Shown: one piece after another, positions 10,471 through 47,474 of the stretch
Numbering within the stretch: the first letter of the stretch is position 1
Layout: each line of letters opens with the position of its first letter
Source: Candidatus Omnitrophota bacterium
GTDB lineage: Bacteria; Omnitrophota; Gorgyraeia; Gygaellales; Profunditerraquicolaceae
Direction: 5' to 3'
NCBI GenBank assembly: GCA_028715415.1
Contig: JAQURX010000001.1
Coordinates: 90,584 to 154,583, forward strand
DNA: 64,000 nucleotides
Position numbers and translations under genes: made by a program
Notes under the pieces: generated by a model
Told to the model about the DNA's origin: nothing
Databases searched by the model: none
Seen by the model: the letters and a program-made list of their open reading frames with translations, nothing else

Positions 10471-10472
10471 CT

Positions 10473-11637: not shown

Positions 11638-12132
11638 ATGAACGAAAATCTTGAGAAAGTCCAGAATAAGTTTCTTGAAACTTTAGGTATTATGAGTAGT
11701 TCTTTTGGGTTAAATGCTTTTGTTATAAAGCTTTACGGAATTCTATATTTGAACGCAAAACCGTTGTCTTTAGATGAAATGGCGCAGGCTCTAGGGGCTA
11801 GTAAGGGGAATGTGAGTCTTAATATTCGCGAATTGGAAAAGTGGGGGGCAGTAAGGAGAGTTTGGGTTAAGGGATCAAGAAAGGATTTTTATGAAGCCGA
11901 AGCAAATATAAAAAAGATTTTTTTGTCAAAATTAAAAACCTCTATTGAGAAGAAAATATTTGAGATTTCTAATACGTTGGAAGATATTAATAAAGTATTT
12001 CTGTCTGATTTTGTGAATTTAAACAAGGAAGAAAAGATTGTTGCAGAAGTATACAGAGAGCGTTTAAAAAATGTAGAAGAACTAAAAGAATTTGTTGCGA
12101 ATGCTCTAATTATGGCAGAGAAGATCAGTTAG
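11638..12132 (+). CDS. Winged-helix transcriptional regulator, GbsR/MarR-like
   Basis: LSLDEMAQALGASKGNVSLNIRELEKWGAVRRV is an HTH plus wing typical of the GbsR/MarR class; it is preceded by the only sizeable intergenic gap in the cluster. Confidence 0.5.
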   Translation: MNENLEKVQNKFLETLGIMSSSFGLNAFVIKLYGILYLNAKPLSLDEMAQALGASKGNVSLNIRELEKWGAVRRVWVKGSRKDFYEAEANIKKIFLSKLKTSIEKKIFEISNTLEDINKVFLSDFVNLNKEEKIVAEVYRERLKNVEELKEFVANALIMAEKIS

Positions 12133-12164: not shown

Positions 12165-12779
12165 ATGGTTGCGATAATTGATTACGGTGTCGGAAACTTA
12201 GGCTCAATAGTAAATATACTTAAAAAGATTGGAGCTCAGGCCTGTATTGCTCGTGATGAAGATTCACTTGCTAATGCAGAAAAGTTTATTTTACCGGGTG
12301 TTGGTTCTTTTGACTACGGAATGGAAAAACTGCAAAGCTCCGGGGTAATTAAACTTCTATCTAAACGAGTACTTGAAGATAAGGTTCCTATTCTAGGTAT
12401 TTGTTTGGGTATGCAACTTTTTACCAAGATGAGTGAGGAAGGTACAGTTAAAGGGTTGGGATGGATAGATGCTTGTACTGTAAGATTCAGATTTAGTTTG
12501 GAGAATCAAAACCTAAAAATTCCTCATATGGGATGGAATCAGGTTTGCCCTAATATAAACAATGGTTTGTTCAATGAAATGCATAAAGAGCCCCGATTTT
12601 ATTTTGTACATTCCTATCATGTATTATGCAATAGGCGGGAAGATGTAGTTGCTAAAACTACTTATGGGTATGATTTTCCTTCAGTAATAATGCATAACAA
12701 TATTATGGGTGTGCAGTTTCATCCTGAAAAGAGTCATAAGTTTGGTATGAAGTTATTAAAAAATTTTGTTGAACTGTAA
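12165..12779 (+). CDS. Class I glutamine amidotransferase, HisH-like (WbuY-type)
   Basis: IIDYGVGNLGS, GICLGMQLF (catalytic Cys), VQFHPEKS (His). Confidence 0.8.
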   Translation: MVAIIDYGVGNLGSIVNILKKIGAQACIARDEDSLANAEKFILPGVGSFDYGMEKLQSSGVIKLLSKRVLEDKVPILGICLGMQLFTKMSEEGTVKGLGWIDACTVRFRFSLENQNLKIPHMGWNQVCPNINNGLFNEMHKEPRFYFVHSYHVLCNRREDVVAKTTYGYDFPSVIMHNNIMGVQFHPEKSHKFGMKLLKNFVEL

Positions 12780-12800: not shown

Positions 12801-13799
12801 ATGATTAATGATAAGTCGATTCTTATTACCGGTGGTACGGGGTCTTTTGGCAATAAGTTTATTGAGATGATATTAAAGAGTTATAAACCCAAGAAATTGA
12901 TAGTTTTTAGCAGAGATGAGTTTAAGCAGCAGCAAATGGCAAAGATTTTTCCAGAAGATAAGTATCCTATTCGCTATTTTTTAGGAGATGTAAGGGATAA
13001 GGAACGTCTTGTCCGTGCTTTCGAGGGTGTTGATTATGTTATACACGCGGCTGCCCTAAAACAGGTACCGGCATTAGAATATAACCCTACCGAGGCTGTT
13101 AAGACCAATGTTTATGGTGCTGAAAATATAGTTTCAGCAGCAATTCAAACTGGTGTGAAAAAAGTTATAGCTCTCTCTACGGATAAAGCAGTAAGCCCAA
13201 TTAATCTATATGGAGCCACAAAATTAGTTGCTGAAAAGATTTTTCTTGCAGCGAATGCTTATACAGGGCTAAAGGTAAAATTTTCAATTGTCAGATATGG
13301 TAATGTTGCAGGATCAAGGGGTAGTGTTGTGCCGTTTTTTATTGATTTGAAAAGAAATGGCAAAAAAGAATTCCCGATTACAGATGATAGAATGACTAGG
13401 TTCTGGATAACTTTGGAAGAGGGAGTTGGTCTAGTAATGAAAGCCCTGCAAGAATGTGAAGGTGGAGAGGTGCTTATACCTATGGCCCCATCTATGAAAG
13501 TAACTGATTTAGCAAAAGCTATAGAACCAGAATGTAGATTTAAGATAATTGGTATAAGGCCAGGCGAGAAGATTCATGAAACTCTGATTTCACAAGATGA
13601 GGCTAGACAGGTAAAGATTTTTGATGATTGTTATGTTATGCTGCCCCAGTTTTACGAAAGAGAGGAAGTGCGAAATAAATATAAGGATTTTCCAGACGTT
13701 GCGGAAGGCTTCGTTTATAGAAGCGATAATAATAAAAACTGGCTAAATAGGGAAGAGATTACAAAAATCTTAAACAGCTTACAGTTATTAAAAGAATAA
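12801..13799 (+). CDS. pseB: UDP-N-acetylglucosamine 4,6-dehydratase (inverting), PseB/FlaA1-like
   Basis: ILITGGTGSFGNKFI, FSRDEFKQ, FLGDVRDKERL, HAAALKQVP; about 330 aa, as for PseB. Confidence 0.8.
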   Translation: MINDKSILITGGTGSFGNKFIEMILKSYKPKKLIVFSRDEFKQQQMAKIFPEDKYPIRYFLGDVRDKERLVRAFEGVDYVIHAAALKQVPALEYNPTEAVKTNVYGAENIVSAAIQTGVKKVIALSTDKAVSPINLYGATKLVAEKIFLAANAYTGLKVKFSIVRYGNVAGSRGSVVPFFIDLKRNGKKEFPITDDRMTRFWITLEEGVGLVMKALQECEGGEVLIPMAPSMKVTDLAKAIEPECRFKIIGIRPGEKIHETLISQDEARQVKIFDDCYVMLPQFYEREEVRNKYKDFPDVAEGFVYRSDNNKNWLNREEITKILNSLQLLKE

Positions 13800-13803
13800 G
13801 AAA

Positions 13804-14949
13804 ATGATGAAAATACCATATGCCCGTCATGTTATAGATAGAGCTGATATTGCCAATGTGGTTAAAGTTTTAAAGTCTGACTTTATAACGCAAGGACCAG
13901 TAGTAGAGAGATTTGAGAAAAGGTTACTGTCGTATTGTGGAGCAAAATATGCTGTGGTATTTAGTTCTGGAACAGCAGCATTGCATGCAGCATATTCGGC
14001 AGCAGGGCTTTCTTGGGGAGATAATTTTATTACGACTCCAAATACTTTCGCGGCCACAGCAAATGCCGGGCTCTTGTTGGGGGCTAAACCGGTATTTGTT
14101 GATATTGAATCTAATACTGGCAATATAGATGTGTCTAAGGTTGGGGCAAAGATAAATAAAAAGACCAAATTGGTGGTTCCTGTCCATTATGCTGGTAATG
14201 TGGTTGATTTAAAAGACCTTCAAGAATTAGCTATTAAACATAATTTCATGGTTATTGAAGATGCCTGTCATGCCCTTGGTTCGAAATACGAGAAAAGCAT
14301 GATTGGAAATTGTAGGTATTCTGATATGGCAGTATTTAGTTTCCATCCCGCAAAAACAATAACCACAGGAGAGGGTGGAGCAGTTTTGACAAATAATCCG
14401 TTATTCTATAGAAAACTATTTTTATTCCGTAATCACGGTATTAATAAGAGTAGTTTTATGGGGAATCCCCATGGTGACTGGTACTATGAAATGCAATCAC
14501 TAGGCTGCAACTATCGGCTTACCGATATGCAATCAGCACTCGGTTTTTCTCAATTAAGAAAATTAAATAAGTTTATTTCTTATCGTAGAAAGATAGCCCA
14601 GATATACAACCGAGCTTTCTTCAATAATCCCTTTTTCGACGTTCCTACTCAAGTAAATCAATCTTCCTGCCATTTATATGTAATAAGACTTAAGAATCCT
14701 TATGTAGATAAAAAGAAAGAAATCTTTGCTACTTTGAGAAAGAATGGTTTAGGAGTACAGGTCCATTATATACCGGTATATATGCATCCTTACTATAGGA
14801 GCTTAGGCTATAAAGAAGGCCTATGCCCTGTTGCGGAAGATTTTTACCGAAGAGCAATTACTATACCGTTGAGTGCATCTTTAAAAAACAAAGAAATAAA
14901 ATACATTATTGAAACGGTAAAGTTGACGGTGCAAAAGTGCTGCAAATAG
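13804..14949 (+). CDS. pseC: DegT/DnrJ/EryC1-family PLP sugar aminotransferase, PseC-like
   Basis: Lies immediately after pseB; SFHPAKTITTGEGG (PLP-lysine region); size and N-terminus fit PseC. Confidence 0.75.
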   Translation: MMKIPYARHVIDRADIANVVKVLKSDFITQGPVVERFEKRLLSYCGAKYAVVFSSGTAALHAAYSAAGLSWGDNFITTPNTFAATANAGLLLGAKPVFVDIESNTGNIDVSKVGAKINKKTKLVVPVHYAGNVVDLKDLQELAIKHNFMVIEDACHALGSKYEKSMIGNCRYSDMAVFSFHPAKTITTGEGGAVLTNNPLFYRKLFLFRNHGINKSSFMGNPHGDWYYEMQSLGCNYRLTDMQSALGFSQLRKLNKFISYRRKIAQIYNRAFFNNPFFDVPTQVNQSSCHLYVIRLKNPYVDKKKEIFATLRKNGLGVQVHYIPVYMHPYYRSLGYKEGLCPVAEDFYRRAITIPLSASLKNKEIKYIIETVKLTVQKCCK

Positions 14950-15815
14950 AAAAGATAGCGTTAGGTACAGCTCAATTCGGGCTCGATTACGGTATTGCGA
15001 ATAAGAATGGTAAGGTATCAAAAGAAGAAGTTTTTTCTATATTGAATTCTGCTGTTGCGAATAATGTAGATACATTGGATACTGCCTATTCATATGGCGA
15101 TAGCGAGAGCATTATAGGAGAATTTATGTCCAAAAATGACCATAAATTCAAAATAATCTCAAAATTGCCTAGTGTTGATATAAAAGACATAGGTTCATCC
15201 AGGAAATTCTTCAATGATTCTTTAAGGAGGCTGGGTAAAAAAAATATATATGGATATCTGATACACGATTTTAAGAATTTAAGGCTGCAAAAAGAGATAT
15301 GGGATGCTTTAAAGGATTTTAGGGATGAAGGCAGGGTTAAAAAAATAGGCGTAACATTATATAAGCCTGAAGAATTAGATTATTTATTAGAAAATAATCT
15401 AGATTTTGATCTATTGCAGGTACCTTATAATATTCTTGACCAGAGATTTGATCGATACTTGCCGATTTTAAGCAAGAAAAAGGTGATCGTATATGTTCGT
15501 TCTGTTTTTCTTCAGGGATTGTTTTTTTTGCCTTTATCAAGGATAGAAAAAGATTTTAATAAAGCTGCCGGGTCAATTAAGATATTGATGAGATTGTCGT
15601 TGGAATATCAAATACCGATTGCAGCATTGTGTTTGTGCTTTACTATGTTGAATCCGTTTGTTTCAAAGGTTGTAATTGGAGTAGAGTCAAAAGAGCAATT
15701 AGTTCAGAATATTTCATTATTAAGGTATATGGATTCAATAAAAAGAATATATAAAGAATTGGTTGGCTTGAGAATGGAAGACGAAAAGATATTGCTTCCT
15801 TATAATTGGCGATGA
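14937..15815 (+). CDS. Aldo/keto reductase family oxidoreductase
   Basis: LGTAQFGLDYG...LDTAYSYGDSESIIG is an AKR N-terminal signature. Confidence 0.55.
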   Translation: MLQIEKIALGTAQFGLDYGIANKNGKVSKEEVFSILNSAVANNVDTLDTAYSYGDSESIIGEFMSKNDHKFKIISKLPSVDIKDIGSSRKFFNDSLRRLGKKNIYGYLIHDFKNLRLQKEIWDALKDFRDEGRVKKIGVTLYKPEELDYLLENNLDFDLLQVPYNILDQRFDRYLPILSKKKVIVYVRSVFLQGLFFLPLSRIEKDFNKAAGSIKILMRLSLEYQIPIAALCLCFTMLNPFVSKVVIGVESKEQLVQNISLLRYMDSIKRIYKELVGLRMEDEKILLPYNWR

Positions 15816-16582
15816 GAACAGGTGCCATAATACAGGCAAGAACAGGTTCAACTAGGCTTCCTTCAAAGGTGCTTTTGAGGATTTTAGATAAATCCATACT
15901 GGAGTATGTTGTTGAAAGAGTTAGGCATTCTAAACATATTGATACTGTAATAGTGGCAACGACTGATAATAATGAGGATTTGGAAATAGCCGAATTAATG
16001 AAAGGTATTAGCGTAAGTGTTTTTAGAGGGTCCGAGAATGATGTCTTGGATAGGTACTATAAGGCAGCATCTTTTTTTAATATACAGAATATTGTTAGAA
16101 TCACTGCAGATTGCCCGTTAATAGATCCTTTTGTTATAGACTGTGTTATTAAGCGATATTTTTCAGTTCGTGCAGATTATTGTTCGAATATACTCGAGCA
16201 TACTTTTCCTGACGGGGAAGATGTGGAAGTTTTTAGTTTTAAAACTCTGTCTACTGCATGGAAAGAAGCGAAACTTGGTTCGGAACGCGAACACGTTACT
16301 CCTTATATTATTAATAACCCAGGTAGTTTTAAATTGGAAAATGTTAAGAGTGAGGTAGGCCTTTCAGATAAAAGATGGACCCTTGATAGAAAAGAAGATT
16401 ATGATTTTATCAAAAAAGTTATTGAGAATTTGTACCCAACGAATCCTAATTTTAGAATGAGCGATGTTCTAAAATTCGTGCGTGATAATCCGGAGTGTGA
16501 GGATATAAATAAAAATATAATTAGAAATGAAGGTTATCTAAAATCATTACAAAAGGATATTTTGAATGAGAAAAAAAGTTAA
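15806..16582 (+). CDS. Cytidylyltransferase (SpsF/PseF-like; candidate CMP-nonulosonate synthetase)
   Basis: AIIQARTGSTRLPSKVL is the CTP_transf_3 N-terminal motif; VFRGSENDVLDRYY. Confidence 0.7.
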   Translation: MAMRTGAIIQARTGSTRLPSKVLLRILDKSILEYVVERVRHSKHIDTVIVATTDNNEDLEIAELMKGISVSVFRGSENDVLDRYYKAASFFNIQNIVRITADCPLIDPFVIDCVIKRYFSVRADYCSNILEHTFPDGEDVEVFSFKTLSTAWKEAKLGSEREHVTPYIINNPGSFKLENVKSEVGLSDKRWTLDRKEDYDFIKKVIENLYPTNPNFRMSDVLKFVRDNPECEDINKNIIRNEGYLKSLQKDILNEKKS

Positions 16583-17888
16583 TAAATCTCAAGCATTGTA
16601 TAACCGAGCGAAACGCCTTATCCCTGGAGGTACTCAGCTTTTGTCTAAGCGTCCAGAAATGTTTTTGCCCGGAGGATGGCCTGCTTATTACAAGAAAGCC
16701 AAGGGTTGCGAGATTTGGGATTTAGATGGGAATAAATTCATTGATATGAGTTTCATGGGCATAGGCGCATGTATACTGGGTTATGCTGATTCGGACGTAG
16801 ATAATGCAGTTAAAAAGGTTATTGATAATGGTTCGATGAGTACATTAAATTCCTATGAAGAAGTTGAGCTTGCAGAATTGTTATGTGATTTACACCCTTG
16901 GGCTAATATGGTTAGATATGCCAGAACGGGTGGAGAGGCGTTGGCAATAGCTGTTAGGATTGCCCGCGCAAAGTCTAAAAAGGACATGGTATTGTTTTGC
17001 GGATATCATGGTTGGCATGATTGGTATTTATCTTCAAATATATGCGATAAAAAATCTTTGGATAGGCATTTATTGTCCGGCTTAAATCCAATAGGAGTTC
17101 CGAAATGCTTAAAGAATTCTGCGTTGCCTTTTTTTTATAATGATACCCAAGGTTTTTTAAGATTAATCAATAAGCATAAAAATGATATAGGCGTAATAAT
17201 TATTGAGGCTATTAGGAACCGCCCCCCGGAAAAAAAGTTTATCCAGACATTGATGCGCGTTGCACGAGAGATGAAGATTGTATTTATAGTAGATGAAGTA
17301 AGTTCGGGATGGCGTTTAAACTTAGGTGGCGCACACCTACTGTTTGGTATTAAACCTGATATTGCAGTGTTTGCAAAAGGGATTAGTAATGGTTTCCCAA
17401 TGGCTGCCGTAATAGGCAAGTCTTCTGTTATGCAAGCTGCTCAGGATACATTTATAAGCAGTACATATTGGACAGAACGTATTGGGCCAGCGGCAGCGTT
17501 AGCAACAATAAAAAAACTAAAACTTTTTAATGTGTCGAAACATCTTATTTCTTTGGGAAAGTTAGTTCAGGAGAATTGGACTTCAATAGCTGAGCGTAAT
17601 GGTATTTCTATAGAGGTCTCGGGTATATATCCATTAAGCCATTTTGAATTTAAACATAAGAAGAGCCTGGCGCTTAAGACGCTATTTACGAGTTTAATGC
17701 TAGAAAGAGGTTTCTTAGCAACGACTTCTTTTTATCCTTCTTTTTCTCACACAGCTAAACATATAGAAAAATATCTGGATGCATTTGACGCTGTTTTTAA
17801 AATTATATCTAAAGTGGTGTCTAGAGATGAAATTGACAAATATATAAAGAAAGGTATTTGTCATGCTGGTTTTAATAGATTAACGTAA
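16566..17888 (+). CDS. Class III PLP aminotransferase (glutamate-1-semialdehyde aminomutase-like)
   Basis: LIPGGTQLLSKRP...GCEIWDLDGNKFIDM, VDEVSSGWR; about 440 aa. Confidence 0.7.
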   Translation: MRKKVNKSQALYNRAKRLIPGGTQLLSKRPEMFLPGGWPAYYKKAKGCEIWDLDGNKFIDMSFMGIGACILGYADSDVDNAVKKVIDNGSMSTLNSYEEVELAELLCDLHPWANMVRYARTGGEALAIAVRIARAKSKKDMVLFCGYHGWHDWYLSSNICDKKSLDRHLLSGLNPIGVPKCLKNSALPFFYNDTQGFLRLINKHKNDIGVIIIEAIRNRPPEKKFIQTLMRVAREMKIVFIVDEVSSGWRLNLGGAHLLFGIKPDIAVFAKGISNGFPMAAVIGKSSVMQAAQDTFISSTYWTERIGPAAALATIKKLKLFNVSKHLISLGKLVQENWTSIAERNGISIEVSGIYPLSHFEFKHKKSLALKTLFTSLMLERGFLATTSFYPSFSHTAKHIEKYLDAFDAVFKIISKVVSRDEIDKYIKKGICHAGFNRLT

Positions 17889-17894
17889 ATAGAT

Positions 17895-19436
17895 ATGGAA
17901 AAGACTAAGAAGATAATCTTATTATTTCCTAACCCAATAGCAACGATCCCTGGTGGTTTGACTTATGTGGGTAAACGTTTTAAAAAAAATAACTTTGACG
18001 TAAAGATTTATATAAATACATTCCGAGATTTTAAGACCGCGGATGAGTTATTGAATGAAATTATTGAACCTTTTGATCCAGATATAGTTGGATTTTCTTT
18101 TGCAACATATAATGTTTTAGAAGTATATGGGCTTCAGCGTAATTGTAAGGAAAAGGGTTATTTCGTAATTGCCGGAGGCAATCATCCTTCCATTATGCCA
18201 GAAGAATGCTTAAGAAATGGAGCAGATTTGGTTTTTCGTGGCGAATCGGAAACGGGTATTGATAGTTTTTGTGATTGGTATGTTTTCGGTAAAGATATGT
18301 CAAAGAGGAGTCAGATTCCCGGAGTGTCCTATATTGATGATTCAGGAATGTTGGTTAATAACAAGAAAGAGCTGCGCATTAAGAATCTAGATGAGTTAGG
18401 TGAAATAGATTTTTCTTCGATAGAGCTTGATAAGTTCCGGGTCAGTGATGGTTCTGTAAAAGGATTGAATGTAATCAGCTGCGGAAGAGGGTGCCCGTTT
18501 AAATGTTCTTATTGTTCTCACAGAGATTGGTATGAATATTCAAAAAGAAGCGCCGATAGCATAATCGATGAGATGGTTAAAAGGAATAATCTTTATGGGA
18601 TTAAAACCTTTTGGTTATCTGATGAAACATTCACTGTTGACAGAGGTCATATATATGATTTTTGTAAGAAATTCCGTCAAGAAAACTTGCCATTTAAATG
18701 GATGGTTGGGACAAGGGCAAATTCTGTAGATGAAAAATTGCTTTTGACAATGAAAGAGTCCGGCTTAGGACAGATTACGTATGGGATAGAAAGCGCTGAT
18801 CCCGAAACATTGTTAAAAATAAACAAAGGTTATACAGTTGAGCAGGCTTATGAAATAGTTAATCTTACGGGTAGGCTAGGGATTCCTATGTACATAAACC
18901 TTATGACTGGATTCCCATGGGAGACTGTTGTTAGTGTTGAAAACAATATCCGATTTATTAAAGAGGTTGATAAGTATGTTTATTGTTTTCAGCTTTATGG
19001 AGCAGTGATACCTTATCCCGATACCCCTATTTATGAAAATTATCATAAGGAATTTGGTTTTACTGAGTTTTGGTTAAACCCGAGATATCAAAATGCTGGG
19101 ATGGTAATTTATCAGAATGTGCCTAATCCATATAAGATGAGTACTTATTTTCAGCGTAATTTATATGATGATACTTATGTGGCAGAGGATTATTTTTTTA
19201 AGTTTAAACCAGAATACAAAAATGCCGTAACAAAGATGGGATTTTTGATTGGATGGAAATCAATTCAGGCTCAAACGGATTCGTTGGTTAGGCAGTATGG
19301 AAAGTATCTAGCCGGGTATTTTTCACGCAGGTTATATGATTTAGACCATAATTTAGAGAAGAAGTTAGTTGGTTCATTGATAAAAGTTAACAAGGTTCAT
19401 GAAAATCGCCTAACCGGAAAATTTATTAAGAAATGA
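17895..19436 (+). CDS. B12-binding-domain radical SAM enzyme (class B)
   Basis: N-terminal Rossmann-like region (DIVGFSFATYN) followed by CGRGCPFKCSYCS (CxxxCxxC). Confidence 0.7.
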   Translation: MEKTKKIILLFPNPIATIPGGLTYVGKRFKKNNFDVKIYINTFRDFKTADELLNEIIEPFDPDIVGFSFATYNVLEVYGLQRNCKEKGYFVIAGGNHPSIMPEECLRNGADLVFRGESETGIDSFCDWYVFGKDMSKRSQIPGVSYIDDSGMLVNNKKELRIKNLDELGEIDFSSIELDKFRVSDGSVKGLNVISCGRGCPFKCSYCSHRDWYEYSKRSADSIIDEMVKRNNLYGIKTFWLSDETFTVDRGHIYDFCKKFRQENLPFKWMVGTRANSVDEKLLLTMKESGLGQITYGIESADPETLLKINKGYTVEQAYEIVNLTGRLGIPMYINLMTGFPWETVVSVENNIRFIKEVDKYVYCFQLYGAVIPYPDTPIYENYHKEFGFTEFWLNPRYQNAGMVIYQNVPNPYKMSTYFQRNLYDDTYVAEDYFFKFKPEYKNAVTKMGFLIGWKSIQAQTDSLVRQYGKYLAGYFSRRLYDLDHNLEKKLVGSLIKVNKVHENRLTGKFIKK

Positions 19437-20533
19437 AAAAAATCTCAAAAAAATCTGTTTTATTAGTTTGTAAGGATACCGGTGCAGCGAACGCTTTTTC
19501 CAGCTTGGTAAAGGAGTGGAAAGATTATGATATTGAATTATATAGTATCTGTATAGGTTATGCGGCTAATGTTTTTAAAAAAAATGGATTATCTATAACA
19601 TATGCTTTTGAGAAAGATATGCGGCAGGAAGATGTGTCTATGGTTATGGATTCTGTGAAGCCTGCAAGCGTATTAATTGGGACAAGTTTTGATTCAATGA
19701 CTGAAAGATGGTGTTGTGTTGAAGCAAAAAAACGTAATATCTTCAGTCTTGGTTTTGTTGATTGGTGGTCGAGTTTCGGTTTAAGATTTTCGACTCCGCA
19801 AACAAACGATTTAATGTATTTGCCAGATATGATTGCAGTTGTAGATGAAGATGCTCTTTTGGGTTGTGTAGATTGCGGTATTCCGGAAGGTATATTAAAG
19901 ATAACCGGAAATCCATACTGGGATTATCTTCTTCGGGCTAAAGAAACTCTATGTTGTTTACGGCAAGATTTGCGTAAAACGATAAACGTTGCAGATAGTA
20001 GCATTCTAGCTATAGTTTATTCCAGCTATTTAAGTAAGTTTAACCTTGGTTTAGGTTATAATGAGAATGACTTTTGGGGTGCCGTAACCCCGTTGCCCTG
20101 CAAAAATAAAGCAGGTGTTCCTGTAAAATGGTTGTTGAAACTGCATCCTAAAGAAGTCAATTCTACAGCTTCATGCTTATTGAAGAGTAAGTTGTATGAT
20201 ATTTGTATTGCAGATAAGTTGACAGCAATAGAGCTTGGGCTTATTGCAGATTTTACCATAGGTATGTGCTCAACCGCTTTGTTTGAATGTGCATTGCTTG
20301 GGAAAAAAGTAATTTCTGTTCAACCTGGGCTTGATAGGAAACTATCTCGTTTTATGAGGATTTTTGAACATTTGAAAATACCCGTTGTCACGGAGCGCGC
20401 AGAGACTAAGGATCGTCTTGAAATGTTTATCAATGATGAGATGCCGTCTCCTGATTTGAATTATCTTCCAATGTCTATTAAGGGCGGGCGTTCCGCAGTT
20501 ATCTTAAGAAACTTGTTATTAAATAGAGGATGA
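19433..20533 (+). CDS. Hypothetical protein; Rossmann/GT-B-like, with a KLHPKE motif reminiscent of TagF/KpsS-type transferases
   Basis: VLLVCKDTGAANAF N-terminal beta-alpha start; LKLHPKE; no firm family assignment. Confidence 0.4.
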   Translation: MKKISKKSVLLVCKDTGAANAFSSLVKEWKDYDIELYSICIGYAANVFKKNGLSITYAFEKDMRQEDVSMVMDSVKPASVLIGTSFDSMTERWCCVEAKKRNIFSLGFVDWWSSFGLRFSTPQTNDLMYLPDMIAVVDEDALLGCVDCGIPEGILKITGNPYWDYLLRAKETLCCLRQDLRKTINVADSSILAIVYSSYLSKFNLGLGYNENDFWGAVTPLPCKNKAGVPVKWLLKLHPKEVNSTASCLLKSKLYDICIADKLTAIELGLIADFTIGMCSTALFECALLGKKVISVQPGLDRKLSRFMRIFEHLKIPVVTERAETKDRLEMFINDEMPSPDLNYLPMSIKGGRSAVILRNLLLNRG

Positions 20534-21411
20534 AAAATATGTATAAAATAATCAAAGATAAAAAATATGGCTATGCTAGAATTAGCCCACTTCCTTCGGA
20601 AAAAGAAGTGGAGGAATATTATAAAAAAGAATTTTATGCGAAATACGGATCTTTCAATGATTCAGAACTTAAGGTCCAGAAGGAAGAGAAGAAATTCTTT
20701 GATAGCAGGTGGGAAGATATAAAGAGAAGATGCATAGATTATTTTGGTTCGATAAAAGGCAGGTCTTTATTTGATGTAGGGTGCGGTTACTCACAGGCGC
20801 TTTTATATTTTAAAAAGAATGGGTTAGCGGTGAGTGGGCTCGAGCCTTCTACTGAAGGTGCTACATATGCAAAAAAGATAGGGTTAGATGTTTATCAATC
20901 GCGTATAGAAGATTTTTCTTGTATTTATGGGAAGCGTTTCGATATAGTCTTAATGATTAATGTTTTGGAGCATTTACGAAACGCGGCAGAGATATTGATA
21001 CAGTTGAGAAAAGATGTTTTGAAAAAGAAAGGTATTTTGGTCATAGATGTTGCGAATGAGTATAATGATTTCCAGGTTGTAGCCGATAAGGAATATAAGC
21101 TAAAGAGCTGGTGGTTTTGCCCGCCAAATCACATTAATTATTTTAGTCATAGTTCATTATGTAAGACTCTAGAACTATGTGGTTATAAGGTAGTTGTATC
21201 CGAGGCAAGTTTTCCTATAGAATTATTCCTTTTATTGGGGGATATATATGTTGGAAATCCTACTTTGGGTAAAATTTGTCATGAAAAACGCGTCAGATTC
21301 GAATACTTGATGAAAAAGCATGGTAAAGGCAGGAAATTACAGGTTTTTTATGAAGCTTTAGCTAAGCTTGATTTGGGTAGGCAGATTGTTGTTTATGCAA
21401 CACCTCGATAA
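20530..21411 (+). CDS. Class I SAM-dependent methyltransferase
   Basis: LFDVGCGYSQALLYF (motif I), DIVLMINVLEHL. Confidence 0.7.
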   Translation: MKNMYKIIKDKKYGYARISPLPSEKEVEEYYKKEFYAKYGSFNDSELKVQKEEKKFFDSRWEDIKRRCIDYFGSIKGRSLFDVGCGYSQALLYFKKNGLAVSGLEPSTEGATYAKKIGLDVYQSRIEDFSCIYGKRFDIVLMINVLEHLRNAAEILIQLRKDVLKKKGILVIDVANEYNDFQVVADKEYKLKSWWFCPPNHINYFSHSSLCKTLELCGYKVVVSEASFPIELFLLLGDIYVGNPTLGKICHEKRVRFEYLMKKHGKGRKLQVFYEALAKLDLGRQIVVYATPR

Positions 21412-21435
21412 TATAAAAATAAAAAGGAGAGTATT

Positions 21436-22503
21436 TTGGAATTCACAGCACTTAACCGTTATTACAAAATCAAGAACGGAAACATTCTTCCGTTTTCAGA
21501 ACTGCGTAAATTGCGGCCTTTATTGGTTGGGCAGGATCTAAAAATTGTTAATGATAAGGAAAATATTGCTTATGCTGAGCAACTGGCAAAAAGAGGCATG
21601 GAGGTTGTTCCCATAAGAAAGAATCCTATATTTCCGGGTTTTCTGAAGCGCGAAGATTTCCCGCGAAGGGTTATAATGGAAATGACCAGTAGATGTAATT
21701 TTTTATGCAGGATGTGTCCGCAACAGAATTTAAAACGTCCACGAATGGACATGCCCGGTGAGAAATATAGAAGAATTATTGATGAGATTGATGTGTATGG
21801 TATTGAGGGTTTGTGGCTTTATCATCTTGGTGAAGCTTTGTTGCATCCGGAGTTTTGTGAAAACATAAAACATATAAATAAGAAAAATAATTTAGGCGTC
21901 ATATGGATGAGTACAAACGGCCGTAATTTTACTGAAGAGTATATAAAACTAGTTTTAGATTCAAATATAGATTTTATAAATTATTCAGCTCATGCGGTTA
22001 CAGAAAGAACCTATAATACGGTTGCGCCTGAAGGAAATTTTAGTTTTGTCCAAGATAATTTGGAGAATTTATATCGATTAAAAGGTTTATCTAAAGAACC
22101 TAAAAAGCCATTCTTGCATGTTCAGATGATTGAACAGGAGACTACTAAGCATGAAGTAGATGATTTTATAAAAAAACATTATTTACGGGCAGAAATCGTA
22201 AGTGTAAACATGTTGGAGTATGCAAATATGCCTAATAATGTTTTTGGGGCTCAGCAAAGGAATCGAGCTCCTCTTTCTTCGTGCGTGAGGGTTTCGCGTA
22301 ATGATTGTTTTGTTTTTTCGAATGGGGAAGTAACATTATGTGATTTTGCATATAATGGCGAACTTAGCTTAGGGAATATTAATGAAGAAACGCTATATCA
22401 AATCTGGAATGGTGATAGGCGGAAATTTATTCTTAATTTAAACGAGAAGAAGAAAATGAGTAACTTTGAATTTTGCAGCCGATGTACCGATTACGACATT
22501 TAA
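21436..22503 (+). CDS. Radical SAM enzyme with C-terminal auxiliary Cys cluster (SPASM/twitch-like)
   Basis: MEMTSRCNFLCRMCP (CxxxCxxC); C-terminal Cys residues (SSCVRVSRNDC, LCDF, CSRCTDY); strong RBS AAAGGAGAG upstream; non-ATG start in the track. Confidence 0.7.
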   Translation: MEFTALNRYYKIKNGNILPFSELRKLRPLLVGQDLKIVNDKENIAYAEQLAKRGMEVVPIRKNPIFPGFLKREDFPRRVIMEMTSRCNFLCRMCPQQNLKRPRMDMPGEKYRRIIDEIDVYGIEGLWLYHLGEALLHPEFCENIKHINKKNNLGVIWMSTNGRNFTEEYIKLVLDSNIDFINYSAHAVTERTYNTVAPEGNFSFVQDNLENLYRLKGLSKEPKKPFLHVQMIEQETTKHEVDDFIKKHYLRAEIVSVNMLEYANMPNNVFGAQQRNRAPLSSCVRVSRNDCFVFSNGEVTLCDFAYNGELSLGNINEETLYQIWNGDRRKFILNLNEKKKMSNFEFCSRCTDYDI

Positions 22504-22521
22504 TACTGAAATTATTTTAGA

Positions 22522-23580
22522 ATGAAAAGAATATTGATAAGGGTTGATGCTGATGAATATATTGGGATGGGGCATTTTATGCGTTCTTTAGCTCTTGCGC
22601 AGGAATGTAAGAGAGTTGGGTATCAGCCGGTATTTGTTATGTCTAAGAAGTGTACGCAAGCAGAGCTGATTCTTGAGGATGAGGGCATGCGGATTAAATA
22701 TCTTAATGCTGGCATAGGTTCTGTCAATGATGCAAGAAAGGTAGTTTGTCTTGCCGAGGCATTAAGTGCTGGATGGATAGTGCTTGACGGGTATTGCTTT
22801 GGAGCAGAATATCAGAAAACATTAAAAAAAGCAGGTTTGTATCTATTATGTATAGATGATTATGGGCATGCTTCTAATTATTATGCGGATATCATAGTTA
22901 ACCAGAATTTGACAGCTTCAGAGAAATTTTATTGTAAGCGCAAACCATATTCAAAATTACTTCTAGGCACTCGTTACGTACTTTTGCGGAGTGATTTCTT
23001 ATCTTGGAAAAGCCATAAGCGCGTCATCCGTACAACTGCGAACCGGTTACTGGTAACTATGGGTGGAAGTGATCCTAGGAATTCTACAACTAAAGTTATT
23101 AAAGCACTTTTGAGGCTAAAAACCTCTATGCTTAAGGTAAAAGTGGTTGTTGGTGCTTTAAATCCGAACTATGACAAGCTTAGTAGATTAGCAGTCAACA
23201 AAATTATGCCATTAGAAATTATTAGAGATTCTCGTAATATGCCACAACTTATGGCTTGGGCTGATATTGCTATTTCAGCCGCAGGGAGTACTTGTTGGGA
23301 GCTAGCGTTTATGAAATTACCAGCGGTAGTTATTGTTACAGCTGGGAATCAGAAAAAGAATGCTGAGAAGTTAGGTTATGAGGATGTCGCAATAAATCTT
23401 GGTGAAGAATATAAGGTGGCGATAGGCGATATTAGCAGTTCTGTTGAAGCTCTTATGAATAGTTATTCAAGAAGAAAGAAGATGCTTATGAAAGGAAGAA
23501 GTTTGGTAGGTGGCGATGGTGCTAAAAAAGTTGTAAAAGAAATGCTTAGTTTGGTAATTAAAACAACGTTAATGGTATGA
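22522..23580 (+). CDS. pseG: UDP-2,4-diacetamido-2,4,6-trideoxy-beta-L-altropyranose hydrolase, PseG-like
   Basis: ILIRVDADEYIGMGHFMRSLALAQE N-terminus and a GT28-C-like C-terminal half, typical of PseG. Confidence 0.65.
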   Translation: MKRILIRVDADEYIGMGHFMRSLALAQECKRVGYQPVFVMSKKCTQAELILEDEGMRIKYLNAGIGSVNDARKVVCLAEALSAGWIVLDGYCFGAEYQKTLKKAGLYLLCIDDYGHASNYYADIIVNQNLTASEKFYCKRKPYSKLLLGTRYVLLRSDFLSWKSHKRVIRTTANRLLVTMGGSDPRNSTTKVIKALLRLKTSMLKVKVVVGALNPNYDKLSRLAVNKIMPLEIIRDSRNMPQLMAWADIAISAAGSTCWELAFMKLPAVVIVTAGNQKKNAEKLGYEDVAINLGEEYKVAIGDISSSVEALMNSYSRRKKMLMKGRSLVGGDGAKKVVKEMLSLVIKTTLMV

Positions 23581-24482
23581 AGAAAAAGAGATATAGGTGT
23601 ATTTTTCTTGGTTATCTTTGGAAATTAGCTAGGGTAATCCATAATTCTAATTTTGTAGATCTTTTGGCTGTTGGTATAGAGCCTCAACGTAAGGCAAGCT
23701 CTGATGCGATTAGTTATTGTAATCGTTATGGTTTGCCATGGTTTGATGCCAGGAATATCCGGGAGAATACACAATTCAGGCAGTATTTGTTGAGCGGGGT
23801 TGATTTTATTGTAGTTGGTGCATTCGGGCAAATTCTCGATCGCAATATTTTAGAATCTCCAAGGTACGGAGTATTGAATATTCACCCTTCGTTATTGCCT
23901 GCTTATCGCGGAGGATCTCCTATTGAGCAGCAGATTATTGCTGGCGAACGTAAGGGAGGGGTGACTTTGCATTGGCTGGCGGAGGAAATTGATGCTGGCC
24001 CGATAGTTACGGCCAAAGAGGTAATTATTAGGCAGAATGATGATTATCAAATGGTCTTAGACCGTTCGATAAAAGCTGCAGAGAAATTAATGCGTAGTCT
24101 TTTAGGCAAACCGATTGAATCTTGGCCTAGAGTTAAGTATCAAGTTAGTAAACCGCTTCAGGCTCTTCGTACTTCTGATGATTGTGTTATTGATTGGAGT
24201 CAGGATGCCGTCAGTATAAATCGCCTTGTGCTTGCAGAAGGTTGGAAAGGTTGTGTTCGGACAGAGCTTAAGGGTGGAAATTTAGTAATTTTTAAGGCGA
24301 AAGCAGAAAATCCTTTGGGATTAAAGAAGGTTAGCCCTGGTACTGTGCTTGAGGTGGTGCCAAGTCCTTTAATAGCAACTGGTAAGGGAACTTTAAGACT
24401 TCTTAAGTGGGATGTTGCTTTGGGTATAAGAAGGGGGCAGGTATTGCCTTCGAGTATGAAAAAAATTAAGGGATCTGTTTAA
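23577..24482 (+). CDS. Formyltransferase (Fmt/ArnA-N-like), probable sugar N-formyltransferase
   Basis: NIHPSLLPAYRGGSPIEQQIIAGE plus GVTLHWLAEEIDAGPIV is the Formyl_trans_N signature. Confidence 0.75.
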   Translation: MKKKRYRCIFLGYLWKLARVIHNSNFVDLLAVGIEPQRKASSDAISYCNRYGLPWFDARNIRENTQFRQYLLSGVDFIVVGAFGQILDRNILESPRYGVLNIHPSLLPAYRGGSPIEQQIIAGERKGGVTLHWLAEEIDAGPIVTAKEVIIRQNDDYQMVLDRSIKAAEKLMRSLLGKPIESWPRVKYQVSKPLQALRTSDDCVIDWSQDAVSINRLVLAEGWKGCVRTELKGGNLVIFKAKAENPLGLKKVSPGTVLEVVPSPLIATGKGTLRLLKWDVALGIRRGQVLPSSMKKIKGSV

Positions 24483-25252
24483 TGAACATTGCAATGATGC
24501 AGCCTTCTTTTATCCCGTGGCAAGGCTATTTTGAATTAATCTATAAATCCGATATCTTTGTGTTTCTCGATGATTTTCAATTCTCCGTACAGAGTTATCA
24601 TCAGAGGAATAGATTGTTTTTGACTAAAGATAAGATAGGTTGGTATACGGTTCCTGTAAAAAAGAAAGTTTCATTTAAGTCGCCTTTAAACAAAACTGTT
24701 ATTGATGATAGTCCGTATTGGCGCGATAAAATCTTAAAACGTCTTCAGAACAACTATTCTGCTGCCGAACATTATGGTGAATTCTACCCGCAAATAGAAA
24801 GATGGCTACATTCAGAATTTACTTCACTTGGAGATATGAATATAGCTTTTATTAAGTTTATTTGCGATATTATTGGATTTAAGCGCGATTTTCGTTTTAG
24901 TTCAGATTATCCATCAGAATTTGAACGATCAAGTCGTGTTTTGCAGCTACTAAGAGAATTCAAGGCTACTACTTATTTTAGCGCTCAAGGATCATTTGTT
25001 TACATGAGAGAAGATAATGTATTCCCTGTTAAAGATATCAAATTATTATTCCAGAATTTTAAACCTTCCTCTTATAAACAAATTTGTTCAACGGATTGTT
25101 TTTTCCCTTCTCTATCGGTACTGGATGCTCTTTTTAACATTGGTCCTAAGAAGATGCGGAAATATATTGAATCTGGGACTGATAAATGGCTGTCTTGGGA
25201 AGATATGGTTGCGTTGAACGCCGTTAACTACTACAAACCTTCTGAAAAATAA
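24482..25252 (+). CDS. WbqC-like family protein
   Basis: Starts MNIAMMQPSFIPWQGYFELI, the characteristic WbqC-like N-terminus; overlaps the previous stop by 1 nt (TAATG). Confidence 0.55.
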   Translation: MNIAMMQPSFIPWQGYFELIYKSDIFVFLDDFQFSVQSYHQRNRLFLTKDKIGWYTVPVKKKVSFKSPLNKTVIDDSPYWRDKILKRLQNNYSAAEHYGEFYPQIERWLHSEFTSLGDMNIAFIKFICDIIGFKRDFRFSSDYPSEFERSSRVLQLLREFKATTYFSAQGSFVYMREDNVFPVKDIKLLFQNFKPSSYKQICSTDCFFPSLSVLDALFNIGPKKMRKYIESGTDKWLSWEDMVALNAVNYYKPSEK

Positions 25253-25287
25253 AGTAGTTTATTTCTTTTTGATAGGAGCAAAACGTT

Positions 25288-26304
25288 ATGAAAAAACAAT
25301 CGGTATTTATAGTTGCAGAAATATCGGCTAATCATGGACAGAATTTTAAAAGAGCTGTTGCTTTAATAAAGAAAGCAAAAGAATGTGGAGCCGATGCAGT
25401 AAAATTCCAGACGTATACACCAGATACTATTACTATAGATGTGGATAATAAATATTTTAGCATACAGTATCCTCGTTTGGGAAAACAGAGCCTTTATCAA
25501 TTGTATAGCAAGGCTTACACGCCTTGGTCTTGGTTTAAAAAGCTTAAAAAAATAGCTGATGATATGGGGATCGTATTTTTTTCTACAGCTTTTGATAAGA
25601 CGTCAGTAGATTTTCTGGAAGAGCTTCAGGTTCCAATGCATAAAATTGCTTCTTTTGAATTGGTAGACTTGCCATTAATTGAATATGCTGCACAGAAGAA
25701 GAAGCCAATTATAATTTCTACCGGAATGGGAACAATTAAAGAAATTAAAGAAGCGGTTATTGTCGCGCAGAAAGCAGGCAATAAGAATATAGTATTATTA
25801 AAATGTGTTAGTGCTTACCCTGCTCATCCGGAAGAGATGAATTTGAAAACTATCCCCGATATGAAGAAAATGTTCAATTTGCCGGTAGGCCTTTCTGATC
25901 ATTCATTGGATGCGGCGGTGCCGGTTTCTGCAGTTTCTTTGGGGGCGGTTTTTATTGAGAAGCATTTCACTCTATCTCGTTCAATAAAGACTCCAGATTC
26001 TTTTTTTTCAACCGAACCTTCTGAATTTAAGGAGATTGTTAAAAACATTCGGATAGTTGAAAAGGCAATTGGAAAAGTGCATTACGGGGTCACAAAGGAA
26101 GATTTTGATAATCATGTTTTCCGTAGATCTTTATTCGCGGTTGAGCCTATCAAAAAAGGAGAAATATTTTCAGAAATTAATTTAAGATCTATACGTCCGG
26201 CCTATGGATTGGCACCGAAATATTTAAAAGAAATATTAGGAAAAAGATCAAGGTTAAATATAAAAAAAGGAACTCCTTTGACTTGGGGGATGGTTGATGA
26301 ATAG
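25288..26304 (+). CDS. pseI: Nonulosonic acid synthase (NeuB family; PseI-like pseudaminic acid synthase)
   Basis: FIVAEISANHGQNFKRA...GADAVKFQTY is a NeuB N-terminus; the C-terminal SAF-like domain has RSIRPAYGL. Confidence 0.8.
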   Translation: MKKQSVFIVAEISANHGQNFKRAVALIKKAKECGADAVKFQTYTPDTITIDVDNKYFSIQYPRLGKQSLYQLYSKAYTPWSWFKKLKKIADDMGIVFFSTAFDKTSVDFLEELQVPMHKIASFELVDLPLIEYAAQKKKPIIISTGMGTIKEIKEAVIVAQKAGNKNIVLLKCVSAYPAHPEEMNLKTIPDMKKMFNLPVGLSDHSLDAAVPVSAVSLGAVFIEKHFTLSRSIKTPDSFFSTEPSEFKEIVKNIRIVEKAIGKVHYGVTKEDFDNHVFRRSLFAVEPIKKGEIFSEINLRSIRPAYGLAPKYLKEILGKRSRLNIKKGTPLTWGMVDE

Positions 26305-27631
26305 TTCGATGTGGAGCAAGGCTGTGAAGGGTGCTCCGGTTTCTTTAATAATTGAAATATTCAAACACAGGCTTTTTAGGGGTGGAGTTACGTATTTTTT
26401 TGCAACTATAATTGGGTCTGCCATTCCAATGCTTCTTCTCCCTGTCCTGACAAGATATCTGACTCCTATGGAATATGGTACGCTTGCAATATTCCAGGTT
26501 ATTGTATCTCTATTGGTAATACTAATAGGTATAGATACACATGCTGCTGTAGGGGTTGTTTATTTTCAAAAGAGCGGGAATGAAATAAGATCATATATTG
26601 GTAATATCCTTTTAGTTATTGTTGCTTGTTTTGTTATGTTTTTATTTATCGCGGTATTCTTCCATAGACATATCGCGCAAACCTTAAATATTCCTCCTTA
26701 CTTAATATTTATTTCTTTATTTGTGGCTTTTTTTACTGCAATCACAAACGTCGGATTAATGATGTGGCAGGTTACCCATAATTCAAAGTTCTATGCTTTG
26801 TATCAAGTTTCGATGAGTTTATTCAACGCACTTTCTTCAATATTACTTGTTGTTATTTTTCATATGGGATTAAAGGGTCGGATATTTGGAATATCCTCAG
26901 CTGCTATTGTTTTTGGCTTTATTAGTATGTATATATTATTTCGTAACTTTAGGATGAATTTTAAGATAAAAAAAGAGTTTATCAAAGATATATTTATTTT
27001 TTCGCTTCCACTTGTGCCTCACGAAATATCAGGTTGGATAATGTCAGGCACAGACAAGATTTTCCTGAATAATTTTGTTGGTTTAAAAATGACAGGTATA
27101 TATTCTGTAGGTTATCAGATTGGAATGATTCTTGGTCTTGTAACTGCCGCTTTTAATCGAGCATGGGGGCCATATCTTTTTCAGGCGCTTTCTACTATAA
27201 CTTACAGCAAAAAGATTAAAATAGTAAAGGTTACTTATTTATATTTTATTGTTATTTTGTTGCTAGCGTTTTTGTTAAGCATGGTTTCTCCAATCATAAT
27301 TCAAATCCTAGTGAATAAAAATTTTCAAGCTTCAAATGAATTTGTAATTTGGATTGCGCTTGGGGCCGCTGCAATGGGGATGTATTATATGGTTGTTAAT
27401 TATTTATTTTTTGTTAAGAAGACGCATATCCTAGCGCTAGCTACATTTATTTCAGCGCTTGTTAATATAGGATTAAATTATTCTTTGATTAAAATGTATG
27501 GTGCTATGGGTGCCGCAAAAGCAAATGCGATTTCTTCATTCTTTACTTTTTTTCTAGTGTGGTTATTAAGTGCAAAGTATTATCCAATGCCTTGGTTTTC
27601 TTGGAGCAAAATAAAGTCAATTGGAGCATAA
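26294..27631 (+). CDS. Wzx-like oligosaccharide flippase (polysaccharide biosynthesis protein family)
   Basis: About 12 predicted TM helices; length and position (right after the nonulosonate synthase) are typical of Wzx. Confidence 0.6.
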   Translation: MMNSSMWSKAVKGAPVSLIIEIFKHRLFRGGVTYFFATIIGSAIPMLLLPVLTRYLTPMEYGTLAIFQVIVSLLVILIGIDTHAAVGVVYFQKSGNEIRSYIGNILLVIVACFVMFLFIAVFFHRHIAQTLNIPPYLIFISLFVAFFTAITNVGLMMWQVTHNSKFYALYQVSMSLFNALSSILLVVIFHMGLKGRIFGISSAAIVFGFISMYILFRNFRMNFKIKKEFIKDIFIFSLPLVPHEISGWIMSGTDKIFLNNFVGLKMTGIYSVGYQIGMILGLVTAAFNRAWGPYLFQALSTITYSKKIKIVKVTYLYFIVILLLAFLLSMVSPIIIQILVNKNFQASNEFVIWIALGAAAMGMYYMVVNYLFFVKKTHILALATFISALVNIGLNYSLIKMYGAMGAAKANAISSFFTFFLVWLLSAKYYPMPWFSWSKIKSIGA

Positions 27632-47396: not shown

Positions 47397-47434
47397 AGCC
47401 GCTATTTTCCATGAAAAATAGCGGTATTTTTTTT
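47397..47434 (+). terminator. Rho-independent terminator
   Basis: AAGCCGCTATTTTCC-ATG-AAAAATAGCGG gives a stem of about 10 bp, followed by TATTTTTTTTG. Confidence 0.7.
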
Positions 47435-47474
47435 GCAGTCAAGTTTGTTGTGGACTGTGAACTATGGACTAACT

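Follow-up and report, generated by a model that had tools for sequence, protein, structure and literature searches.

Antigenicity, phage recognition and surface charge are set by the N-acyl groups on pseudaminic (Pse) and legionaminic acids, and most enzymes that add groups other than acetyl are unidentified (PMC11040635). For N-formylated pseudaminic acid (Pse5Ac7Fo), the formyltransferase credited with completing the route is PseJ of Anoxybacillus (PDB 6ci2/6ci4; Reimer et al. 2018 via PMC11040635), and PseF takes Pse5Ac7Fo as well as the diacetylated form (Pse5Ac7Ac) with unchanged kcat/Km (PMC11040635). Formyltransferase genes are also on record from Halorubrum, Kuenenia and Geobacillus, in clusters for nonulosonates and for flagellin glycosylation. 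Here we analyse a Pse-type gene cluster in a 64,000-nucleotide stretch of DNA (henceforth referred to as ‘the window’) from a metagenome-assembled genome of a Candidatus Omnitrophota bacterium (GenBank assembly GCA_028715415.1, contig JAQURX010000001.1, positions 90,584 to 154,583; 64 kb of a 219 kb contig). Judged by its genes, the region 12165-33519 of the window is a predicted pseudaminic-acid-type nonulosonate module inside a large Wzx-dependent surface-glycan locus. The sugar made by this module is probably N-formylated, because a predicted two-domain formyltransferase sits where related clusters carry an acetyl-adding enzyme.

Protein families were assigned to window open reading frames (ORFs) of at least 120 aa, antisense ORFs included, by Pfam gathering scores and NCBIfam curated equivalog cut-offs. 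The ORFs named in an earlier note, which was made from the sequence of this DNA alone, are all present on the + strand, as are all other window genes described here. The four core enzymes that it proposed pass the NCBIfam equivalog cut-offs: PseB, the inverting UDP-N-acetylglucosamine (UDP-GlcNAc) 4,6-dehydratase (12801-13799; TIGR03589, 490.8 bits against a cut-off of 407.75); PseC, the UDP-4-amino-4,6-dideoxy-L-AltNAc aminotransferase (13804-14949; TIGR03588, 488.2 against 423.5); PseG, the UDP-sugar hydrolase (22522-23580; TIGR03590, 217.9 against 153.55); and PseI, the pseudaminic acid synthase (25288-26304; TIGR03586, 454 against 340.25). E-values of the core-gene and Pfam matches range from 1e-29 to 1e-147, far beyond chance. 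Between pseG and pseI lies the predicted two-domain Fmt/ArnA-like N-formyltransferase of 301 residues (23577-24482), with matches to Formyl_trans_N (PF00551, 102.4 bits against a gathering score of 26.1) and Formyl_trans_C (PF02911, 35.6 against 21.1), followed by a WbqC-family protein (24482-25252; PF08889, 193.7 against 21.3). The stop codon of pseG overlaps the start of the formyltransferase gene (ATGA), and the stop of the latter overlaps the start of wbqC (TAATG). The gene arrangement agrees with the earlier description of a Formyl_trans_N enzyme set between pseG and pseI beside a WbqC-like protein.

The same note had reported no GNAT-type PseH acetyltransferase, and this absence is borne out. 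Pfam and NCBIfam scans found no GNAT family among the window ORFs, and a PseH-like hidden Markov model (HMM), built from 43 GNATs of related loci and recovering 52 ORFs in those loci as a positive control, detected no PseH-like GNAT in a six-frame translation of the whole 64 kb window (best E = 0.14). An ORF of 164 aa at 11638-12132, considered as a hidden GNAT, was rejected, having only weak winged-helix/MarR-type matches.

The place that the formyltransferase occupies is best seen by comparison with a metagenomic cluster, L087, that was retrieved via its WbqC (67% identity) and shares 15 colinear orthologues with the window at 51-79% protein identity. Its genes run in the order PseC, aldo/keto reductase (AKR), SpsF, class-III aminotransferase, B12-binding radical SAM enzyme, unknown, methyltransferase, radical SAM/SPASM enzyme and PseG, and then, after the interval in question, WbqC, PseI, Wzx, unknown, HisH, HisF and WbuX. 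In the pseG-wbqC interval (henceforth referred to as the ‘slot’) the sole difference is that L087 encodes a 177-aa GNAT, whose best NCBIfam match is PseH (TIGR03585, 68 bits), whereas the window encodes the formyltransferase. A GNAT also fills the slot in L088 (Ca. Methanoperedens), whereas a formyltransferase of the window type fills it in L001 (Rhodospirillaceae bacterium LM-1) and L086. The synteny of the slot with GNAT clusters, together with the absence of a GNAT from the window, places the formyltransferase in a Pse cluster in the position of PseH.

We extended this comparison to 80 metagenomic loci fetched via WbqC, whose ORFs were classed with phmmer; 69 of them, all WbqC-NeuB loci, had enough upstream sequence to be scored, the slot being taken here as the genes within 2.5 kb of WbqC. 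It held a GNAT in 32 loci, a hexapeptide acetyltransferase in 17, a formyltransferase in six, a formyltransferase plus a GNAT in two and none of these in 12. The slot GNATs have PseH (TIGR03585) as their top NCBIfam match at 62-73 bits, and they alternate with a hexapeptide enzyme of 180 aa (NeuD/PglB/VioB-like) in the 17 loci of the second class (L096, L097, L100, L104, L107, L112, L113, L117, L120, L121, L127, L129, L130, L134-L136 and L147). A second, different family of slot formyltransferases, of about 260 aa and with FdtF, the LgrA F domain and PseJ as its best solved relatives, stands upstream of WbqC-NeuB in L099 (299-1081), L106 (142-924) and L158 (7405-8187). Such a pattern is to be expected of a slot whose gene encodes the enzyme that N-acylates the PseC product and, since at least two formyltransferase families occur in it, suggests that formylation has been recruited to this step more than once.

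On these grounds we propose the following pathway. PseB and PseC would convert UDP-GlcNAc into UDP-4-amino-4,6-dideoxy-beta-L-AltNAc; the enzyme encoded at 23577-24482 would formylate the 4-amino group of this sugar in an N10-formyl-tetrahydrofolate-dependent reaction that replaces acetylation by PseH; PseG would take off UDP; and PseI would join the resulting sugar with phosphoenolpyruvate to give a Pse5Ac7Fo core. The CMP-sugar would then probably be made by the cytidylyltransferase encoded at 15806-16582, which the earlier note had called SpsF/PseF-like. The SpsF half of that label holds (CTP_transf_3, 123 bits by Pfam), and the closest solved relative is PDB 6oew (161 bits), an entry titled only ‘Cytidylyltransferase’; on the PseF equivalog model (TIGR03584), however, the protein reaches 33.7 bits against a cut-off of 205.7 and so falls outside the family. 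None of the cytidylyltransferases of related clusters reaches the PseF cut-off either, and we therefore take 15806-16582 as the sole candidate for a CMP-nonulosonate synthetase in the window. Finally, an acetamidino system (HisH, HisF2 and WbuX) and a cassette comprising the AKR, the SpsF-type enzyme, the class-III aminotransferase, the B12-binding radical SAM enzyme, the methyltransferase, the radical SAM/SPASM enzyme and WbqC may tailor the sugar further. The earlier prediction of an N-formylated sugar of the Pse5Ac7Fo kind thus keeps its formylation logic, backed by slot synteny and the lack of PseH, but a plain Pse5Ac7Fo does not fit the acetamidino genes and the cassette, and the product is probably more elaborate. 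That the slot enzyme N-formylates the PseC product itself is, in our judgement, moderately likely.

Several observations weigh against this assignment. In L085, which encodes the closest formyltransferase (59% identity), the formyltransferase is followed by a GNAT, and L142 also carries both enzymes; the cassette contains a second aminotransferase; members of the formyltransferase subfamily stand away from the slot in L004 and L160, and in one case (L002) with no Pse cluster around them; the genome might hold a PseH gene beyond the limits of the window; and a hexapeptide (LbH) acetyltransferase domain encoded at 8893-10470 could in principle acetylate the 4-amine.

The first two of these observations lead to an alternative in which the formyltransferase acts on a different amine, such as one that the class-III aminotransferase would add to the nonulosonate or its precursor, perhaps following an oxidation catalysed by the radical SAM/SPASM enzyme or a GFO-type oxidoreductase, and in which the PseC 4-amine stays free or is otherwise acylated. 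Since L085 and L142 encode a formyltransferase and a PseH-like GNAT side by side, the two need not be strict alternatives, and the formyltransferase might indeed use another amine; the second aminotransferase, which is always part of the cassette, means that such an amine may exist as a possible formyl acceptor. In the PDB the radical SAM/SPASM enzyme has a single sequence match, at only 29 bits, to the BtrN C-terminal domain; BtrN is a sugar dehydrogenase of the radical SAM class whose reaction precedes a transamination. CMP-nonulosonates in which one amine is free and the other formylated have been reported for Kuenenia (preprint 10.64898/2026.04.20.719630). However, the GNAT-only clusters L087 and L088 have the same aminotransferase and radical SAM genes and yet a single slot acyltransferase, which argues that the slot enzyme tracks the core pathway and not an extra amine, and PseG and PseI normally use a 4-N-acylated sugar (PMC11040635). 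Formylation of a different amine is therefore unlikely in our view, though far from negligible.

Less probable again is that N4-acetylation persists, through the LbH domain at 8893-10470 or a PseH encoded outside the window, and that the formyltransferase modifies another sugar of the repeat unit. LbH acetyltransferases of the PglD and LegH types acetylate UDP-4-amino sugars in related pathways, small LbH enzymes hold the slot in the 17 of 69 loci listed above, and the 64 kb window covers part of a contig of 219 kb. The domain at 8893-10470, which the earlier note had left out together with the acetamidino system, is fused to a GFO_IDH_MocA oxidoreductase (Pfam); in L087 the GFO and LbH functions are encoded by separate genes. 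As L087 carries both of these genes besides its slot GNAT, they probably have a role of their own. Moreover, the formyltransferase gene is embedded between pseG and wbqC-pseI by overlapping stop and start codons, and no other amino-sugar pathway in the window is obviously short of an N-acyltransferase. We regard persistent N4-acetylation as quite improbable. As an observation on the same region, the GFO-LbH fusion (WbpB/WbpD-like logic) is followed by a non-hydrolysing UDP-GlcNAc 2-epimerase of the WecB and not the NeuC type (10467-11537; Pfam Epimerase_2; TIGR00236, 293 bits against 210; NeuC model, 51 bits), and neither a WbpA nor a WbpE partner for this pair (8893-11537) was detected in the window.

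We also examined whether the enzyme belongs to sugar metabolism or to Met-tRNA formylation. About 35 relatives with 39-59% identity (186-392 bits) were found in a collection of 5.8 billion proteins, in which ordinary Fmt proteins reached at most 102 bits. The catalytic triad N101, H103 and D139 is invariant across 26 members of this subfamily; the folate motif HPSLLP is present, and its SLLP is invariant in the subfamily. In an alignment with true Fmt, the whole subfamily is without both the loop 1 insertion (PDRPAGRG-K) and the C-terminal GK(K/R)xM insertion of Fmt, which we take to be the elements that bind tRNA in the Fmt-tRNA complex. The window protein scores 123.9 against the cut-off of 201.5 of the fmt equivalog model (TIGR00460), with a match that begins only at residue 46. 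A neighbour-joining tree of the subfamily with E. coli Fmt, the N-domain of E. coli ArnA and eleven Fmt-like proteins did not group the enzyme with Met-tRNA formyltransferases: the subfamily is monophyletic and lies outside both Fmt and ArnA in 100 of 100 bootstraps. A profile of the subfamily gives similar scores for Fmt (143 bits) and ArnA (139 bits), then 81-86 bits for WbkC/QdtF/FdtF and 51 bits for PseJ. The single sequence matches Fmt at 93 bits in the PDB and PseJ at 42 bits, the latter over the core residues 66-173 only. Fmt and the formyltransferase domain of ArnA are equally good structural matches for the AlphaFold (AF2) model of the enzyme (pLDDT 92.7; TM 0.77-0.81). The matches listed by a profile search of genome contigs with the formyltransferase alignment were ordinary Fmt (at most 34% identity), with no members of the subfamily among them.

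The genomic setting of the subfamily points the same way. Six contigs were fetched via the formyltransferase: in five it belongs to a NeuB cluster, in the sixth (L002) it has other sugar genes as neighbours, and in none does it adjoin def; a weaker member, L160, was found in a WbqC locus and likewise not beside def. The L002 member (10001-10879, 45% identity) has no NeuB nearby and adjoins the two genes of a split transketolase-like enzyme together with genes of the dTDP-sugar or heptose type; because it sits outside any NeuB cluster, the subfamily is not confined to Pse clusters. Thus, although the best single NCBIfam and PDB sequence matches of 23577-24482 are to Fmt and its homologues are annotated by JGI as methionyl-tRNA formyltransferases, the subthreshold fmt score, the missing insertions, the separate clade, the near-equal ArnA and Fmt profile scores and the prevalence of NeuB clusters over def neighbours make it extremely improbable that the locus merely happens to house the Met-tRNA(fMet) formyltransferase of this bacterium. 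The protein is almost certainly a sugar-pathway enzyme.

The genes that stand between pseC and pseG had been read as splitting the pathway and as hinting at further tailoring of its intermediate. The second idea has fared well and the first has not: they form a conserved cassette, and are not random inserts or interruptions, since the same gene order recurs across related loci. The cassette begins with the AKR (14937-15815; 123 bits by Pfam), which is kept in L085, L086, L087 and L088, and continues with the SpsF-type cytidylyltransferase and a class-III, GSA-aminomutase-like aminotransferase (16566-17888; Aminotran_3, 142 bits), whose best NCBIfam matches stay below their cut-offs. Next come a B12-binding radical SAM enzyme, a candidate C-methyltransferase (17895-19436; B12-binding and Radical_SAM domains by Pfam; 79% identical to its L087 orthologue); a conserved soluble protein with no Pfam, NCBIfam or PDB match and no transmembrane segments (19433-20533; L087 orthologue, 59%); a class I SAM methyltransferase (20530-21411; Methyltransf_23 by Pfam; L087 orthologue, 79%); and the radical SAM/SPASM enzyme (21436-22503, by Pfam), a member of a highly conserved family of about 355 aa. 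The gene order AKR, SpsF-type enzyme, class-III aminotransferase, Methyltransf_23 protein and radical SAM/SPASM enzyme is repeated in L001, L085, L087 and L088, and in numerous metagenomic loci. The cassette goes with GNAT-type and formyltransferase-type clusters and almost never with the LbH type, the 17 hexapeptide-slot clusters being mostly without the AKR, aminotransferase, methyltransferase and radical SAM genes.

Gene fusions tie part of the cassette together. The cytidylyltransferase is fused to the Aminotran_3 aminotransferase in L001 (4826-6871) and L086 (6836-8863), and an SpsF-like cytidylyltransferase is fused to an AKR in the nab cluster of Vibrio (PMC7371886); because of these fusions, the AKR, SpsF-type enzyme and class-III aminotransferase (14937-17888) appear to act as one unit. 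The BtrN match gives a weak hint that the radical SAM/SPASM enzyme and the class-III aminotransferase might form an oxidise-then-transaminate step. With the radical SAM/SPASM protein of L001 as query, 147 homologues were found at E <= 1e-20 across phyla (45-59% identity; the window protein, P0289, at 49%); among cultured bacteria, Desulfovibrio, Desulfonema magnum and Acetobacterium carry members of the family. We found no literature linking nonulosonates with radical SAM enzymes. A CMP-activated C10 ulosonic acid has been reported in Magnetospirillum gryphiswaldense (SugarBase preprint), and a link between it and the cassette was considered and found unsupported, there being no M. gryphiswaldense among the 147 homologues listed for the L001 protein. 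Some relatives of the cluster also contain FemAB-family genes (aminoacyl-tRNA-dependent transferase-like; L001 3793-4779, L145, L156, L163 and L165), of which there are none in the window, a hint that these relatives may attach amino acids to the sugar.

WbqC is the other constant of these loci, lying directly upstream of NeuB/PseI in most of the 80 fetched loci in which the downstream region is present. Its sequence is strongly constrained (52 invariant positions among 37 sequences of 49-65% identity) and its AF2 model is confident (pLDDT 92), and neither a significant structural neighbour of this model nor a sequence match was found in the PDB; in the literature we found WbqC in passing mentions only, with no function. 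WbqC has no special tie to the formyltransferase but goes with each kind of N-acyltransferase, along with DegT aminotransferases. Distant members in Bacillus cereus-group megaplasmids, Rhizobium plasmids and Solidesulfovibrio stand beside DegT aminotransferases and GNATs without NeuB, which ties WbqC to the N-acylation of amino sugars in general. The family is presumably named after a gene of the E. coli O121 / Shigella dysenteriae 7 cluster, which specifies an O antigen with N-acetylglycyl-Qui4N. An N-acetylglycine substituent is documented for the E. coli O121 O antigen (PMC7685785). WbqC may help to build or process the N-acyl group.

Taking the cassette and WbqC together, we put forward tentatively a wider interpretation, in which a widespread branch of Pse biosynthesis is defined by WbqC-NeuB and the cassette (sometimes with the B12-binding radical SAM enzyme), and the formyltransferase is only its visible variable part. 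The product would be a nonulosonate with a modified backbone, bearing an extra amino and/or C-methyl group, with the N7 acyl group swapped between acetyl and formyl; WbqC, for its part, would represent a new fold of enzyme that works next to the N-acyltransferase on 4-amino sugar nucleotides. The gene combination on which this possible branch is based occurs in Omnitrophota, Ca. Methanoperedens, Desulfovibrio, Desulfonema, Nitrospirota and a magnetotactic member of the Rhodospirillaceae, and Legionella serogroups 6/12 have part of it.

The module also contains an acetamidino system of three components: a HisH-type glutaminase subunit (12165-12779; TIGR01855, 237 bits against 105), an AglZ/HisF2 (WbuZ) cyclase-like subunit (29144-29899; NF038364, 361 against 310) and a WbuX/PseA-type N-acetyl sugar amidotransferase (29901-31064; TIGR03573, 306 against 203). 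In the window the set is split, HisH lying just upstream of pseB and HisF2/WbuX 16 kb downstream, past the flippase, whereas in L087 the HisH orthologue (57% identity) adjoins HisF/WbuX. In C. jejuni the homologous genes for PseA, HisH and HisF flank pseH (PMC12102941). As all three proteins pass their cut-offs, an acetamidino group may be part of the final sugar; with N7 formylated, N5 would presumably be its site.

As for the surroundings, the window has a low GC content (33-40%), with all sizeable genes on the + strand, and promoter and terminator scans of it gave no excess over shuffled sequence. A single, very large surface-glycan locus spans positions 1 to about 50,000; it encodes glycosyltransferases, methyltransferases and radical SAM enzymes as well as a PglC-like initiating transferase, a Wzx flippase and a Wzy_C protein. 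Downstream of it lie the housekeeping genes for GroEL, GuaB, GuaA, DnaE, HisS, AspS and PhoH. Directly after pseI come the Wzx-type flippase (26294-27631; Polysacc_synt, eight hydrophobic segments, 73% identical to its L087 orthologue) and a conserved soluble protein of no Pfam or NCBIfam family and without transmembrane segments (27621-29057; 72% identical to a partial L087 orthologue), which was considered as a Wzy polymerase and rejected, as it has no hydrophobic segments. The module closes with a second Methyltransf_23 methyltransferase (31082-32038) and a second B12-binding radical SAM enzyme (32035-33519), both by Pfam; with a second radical SAM/SPASM enzyme at 3954-5000, the latter makes the glycan locus unusually rich in radical SAM enzymes. 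The region 3954-8222 also encodes a protein with ten transmembrane segments (4934-6325) and an asparagine-synthase-like amidotransferase (6267-8222), several further methyltransferases are found in the locus, and a 761-aa protein (47433-49718), whose sole Pfam match is to a spermine/spermidine-synthase domain, stands at its end, right after the Wzy_C protein.

The window and L087 form a clean, testable pair, and comparing them could establish the function of a second family of Pse N7-formyltransferases, one not orthologous to the first and widespread in uncultured phyla. Confirmation of formylation alone would be an incremental gain; the tailoring cassette and WbqC are further targets, and both are also found in cultured bacteria such as Legionella, the Bacillus cereus group and Desulfovibrio.

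Set beside the known systems, the idea that the slot enzyme formylates a Pse precursor is right in its logic and not new in kind, because PseJ is a precedent and formyltransferase genes have been noted in other nonulosonate clusters. Like PseJ, the enzyme described here is a formyltransferase in a Pse cluster with the Formyl_trans_N catalytic core, but PseJ consists of one domain only, about 190-217 residues long and related to LgrA F, whereas the window protein has 301 residues in two domains and scores far closer to Fmt (93 bits) than to PseJ (42 bits); the two are not orthologous. With the N-terminal domain of ArnA it shares the two-domain Fmt-like fold (root-mean-square deviation 3.2-3.6 at the TM values given above) and, as proposed, the type of reaction, since ArnA formylates the 4-amino group of a UDP-sugar, UDP-4-amino-4-deoxy-L-arabinose; it differs in sequence (21-22% identity), in forming a separate clade, in lacking a fused decarboxylase domain and in its predicted sugar substrate. 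The canonical Pse pathway of Campylobacter and Helicobacter has in common with the window the PseB, PseC, PseG and PseI equivalogs, and in C. jejuni the pse genes, too, have HisH/HisF/PseA-type genes alongside (PMC12102941). The window, however, is without PseH and a PseF equivalog and has nine interleaved genes, namely those for the AKR, the SpsF-type enzyme, the class-III aminotransferase, two radical SAM enzymes, the methyltransferase, the protein of unknown family, the formyltransferase and WbqC. The O-antigen cluster of Legionella pneumophila serogroups 6/12 comes close in content, with a GNAT, PseG, a GSA-aminomutase-like aminotransferase, a cytidylyltransferase, HisF/HisH/LPS protein, an aldo-keto-type reductase and a DegT protein, and its AKR/cytidylyltransferase/aminotransferase trio is given without functional assignment (PMC3694923); in both this cluster and Vibrio nab a GNAT is found instead of the formyltransferase, and radical SAM genes are not listed. 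Overall, three features are new with respect to these systems: a non-orthologous, two-domain Fmt/ArnA-like clade in the predicted role of Pse formyltransferase, a natural exchange of GNAT for formyltransferase between near-identical clusters, and a conserved cassette without assigned function.

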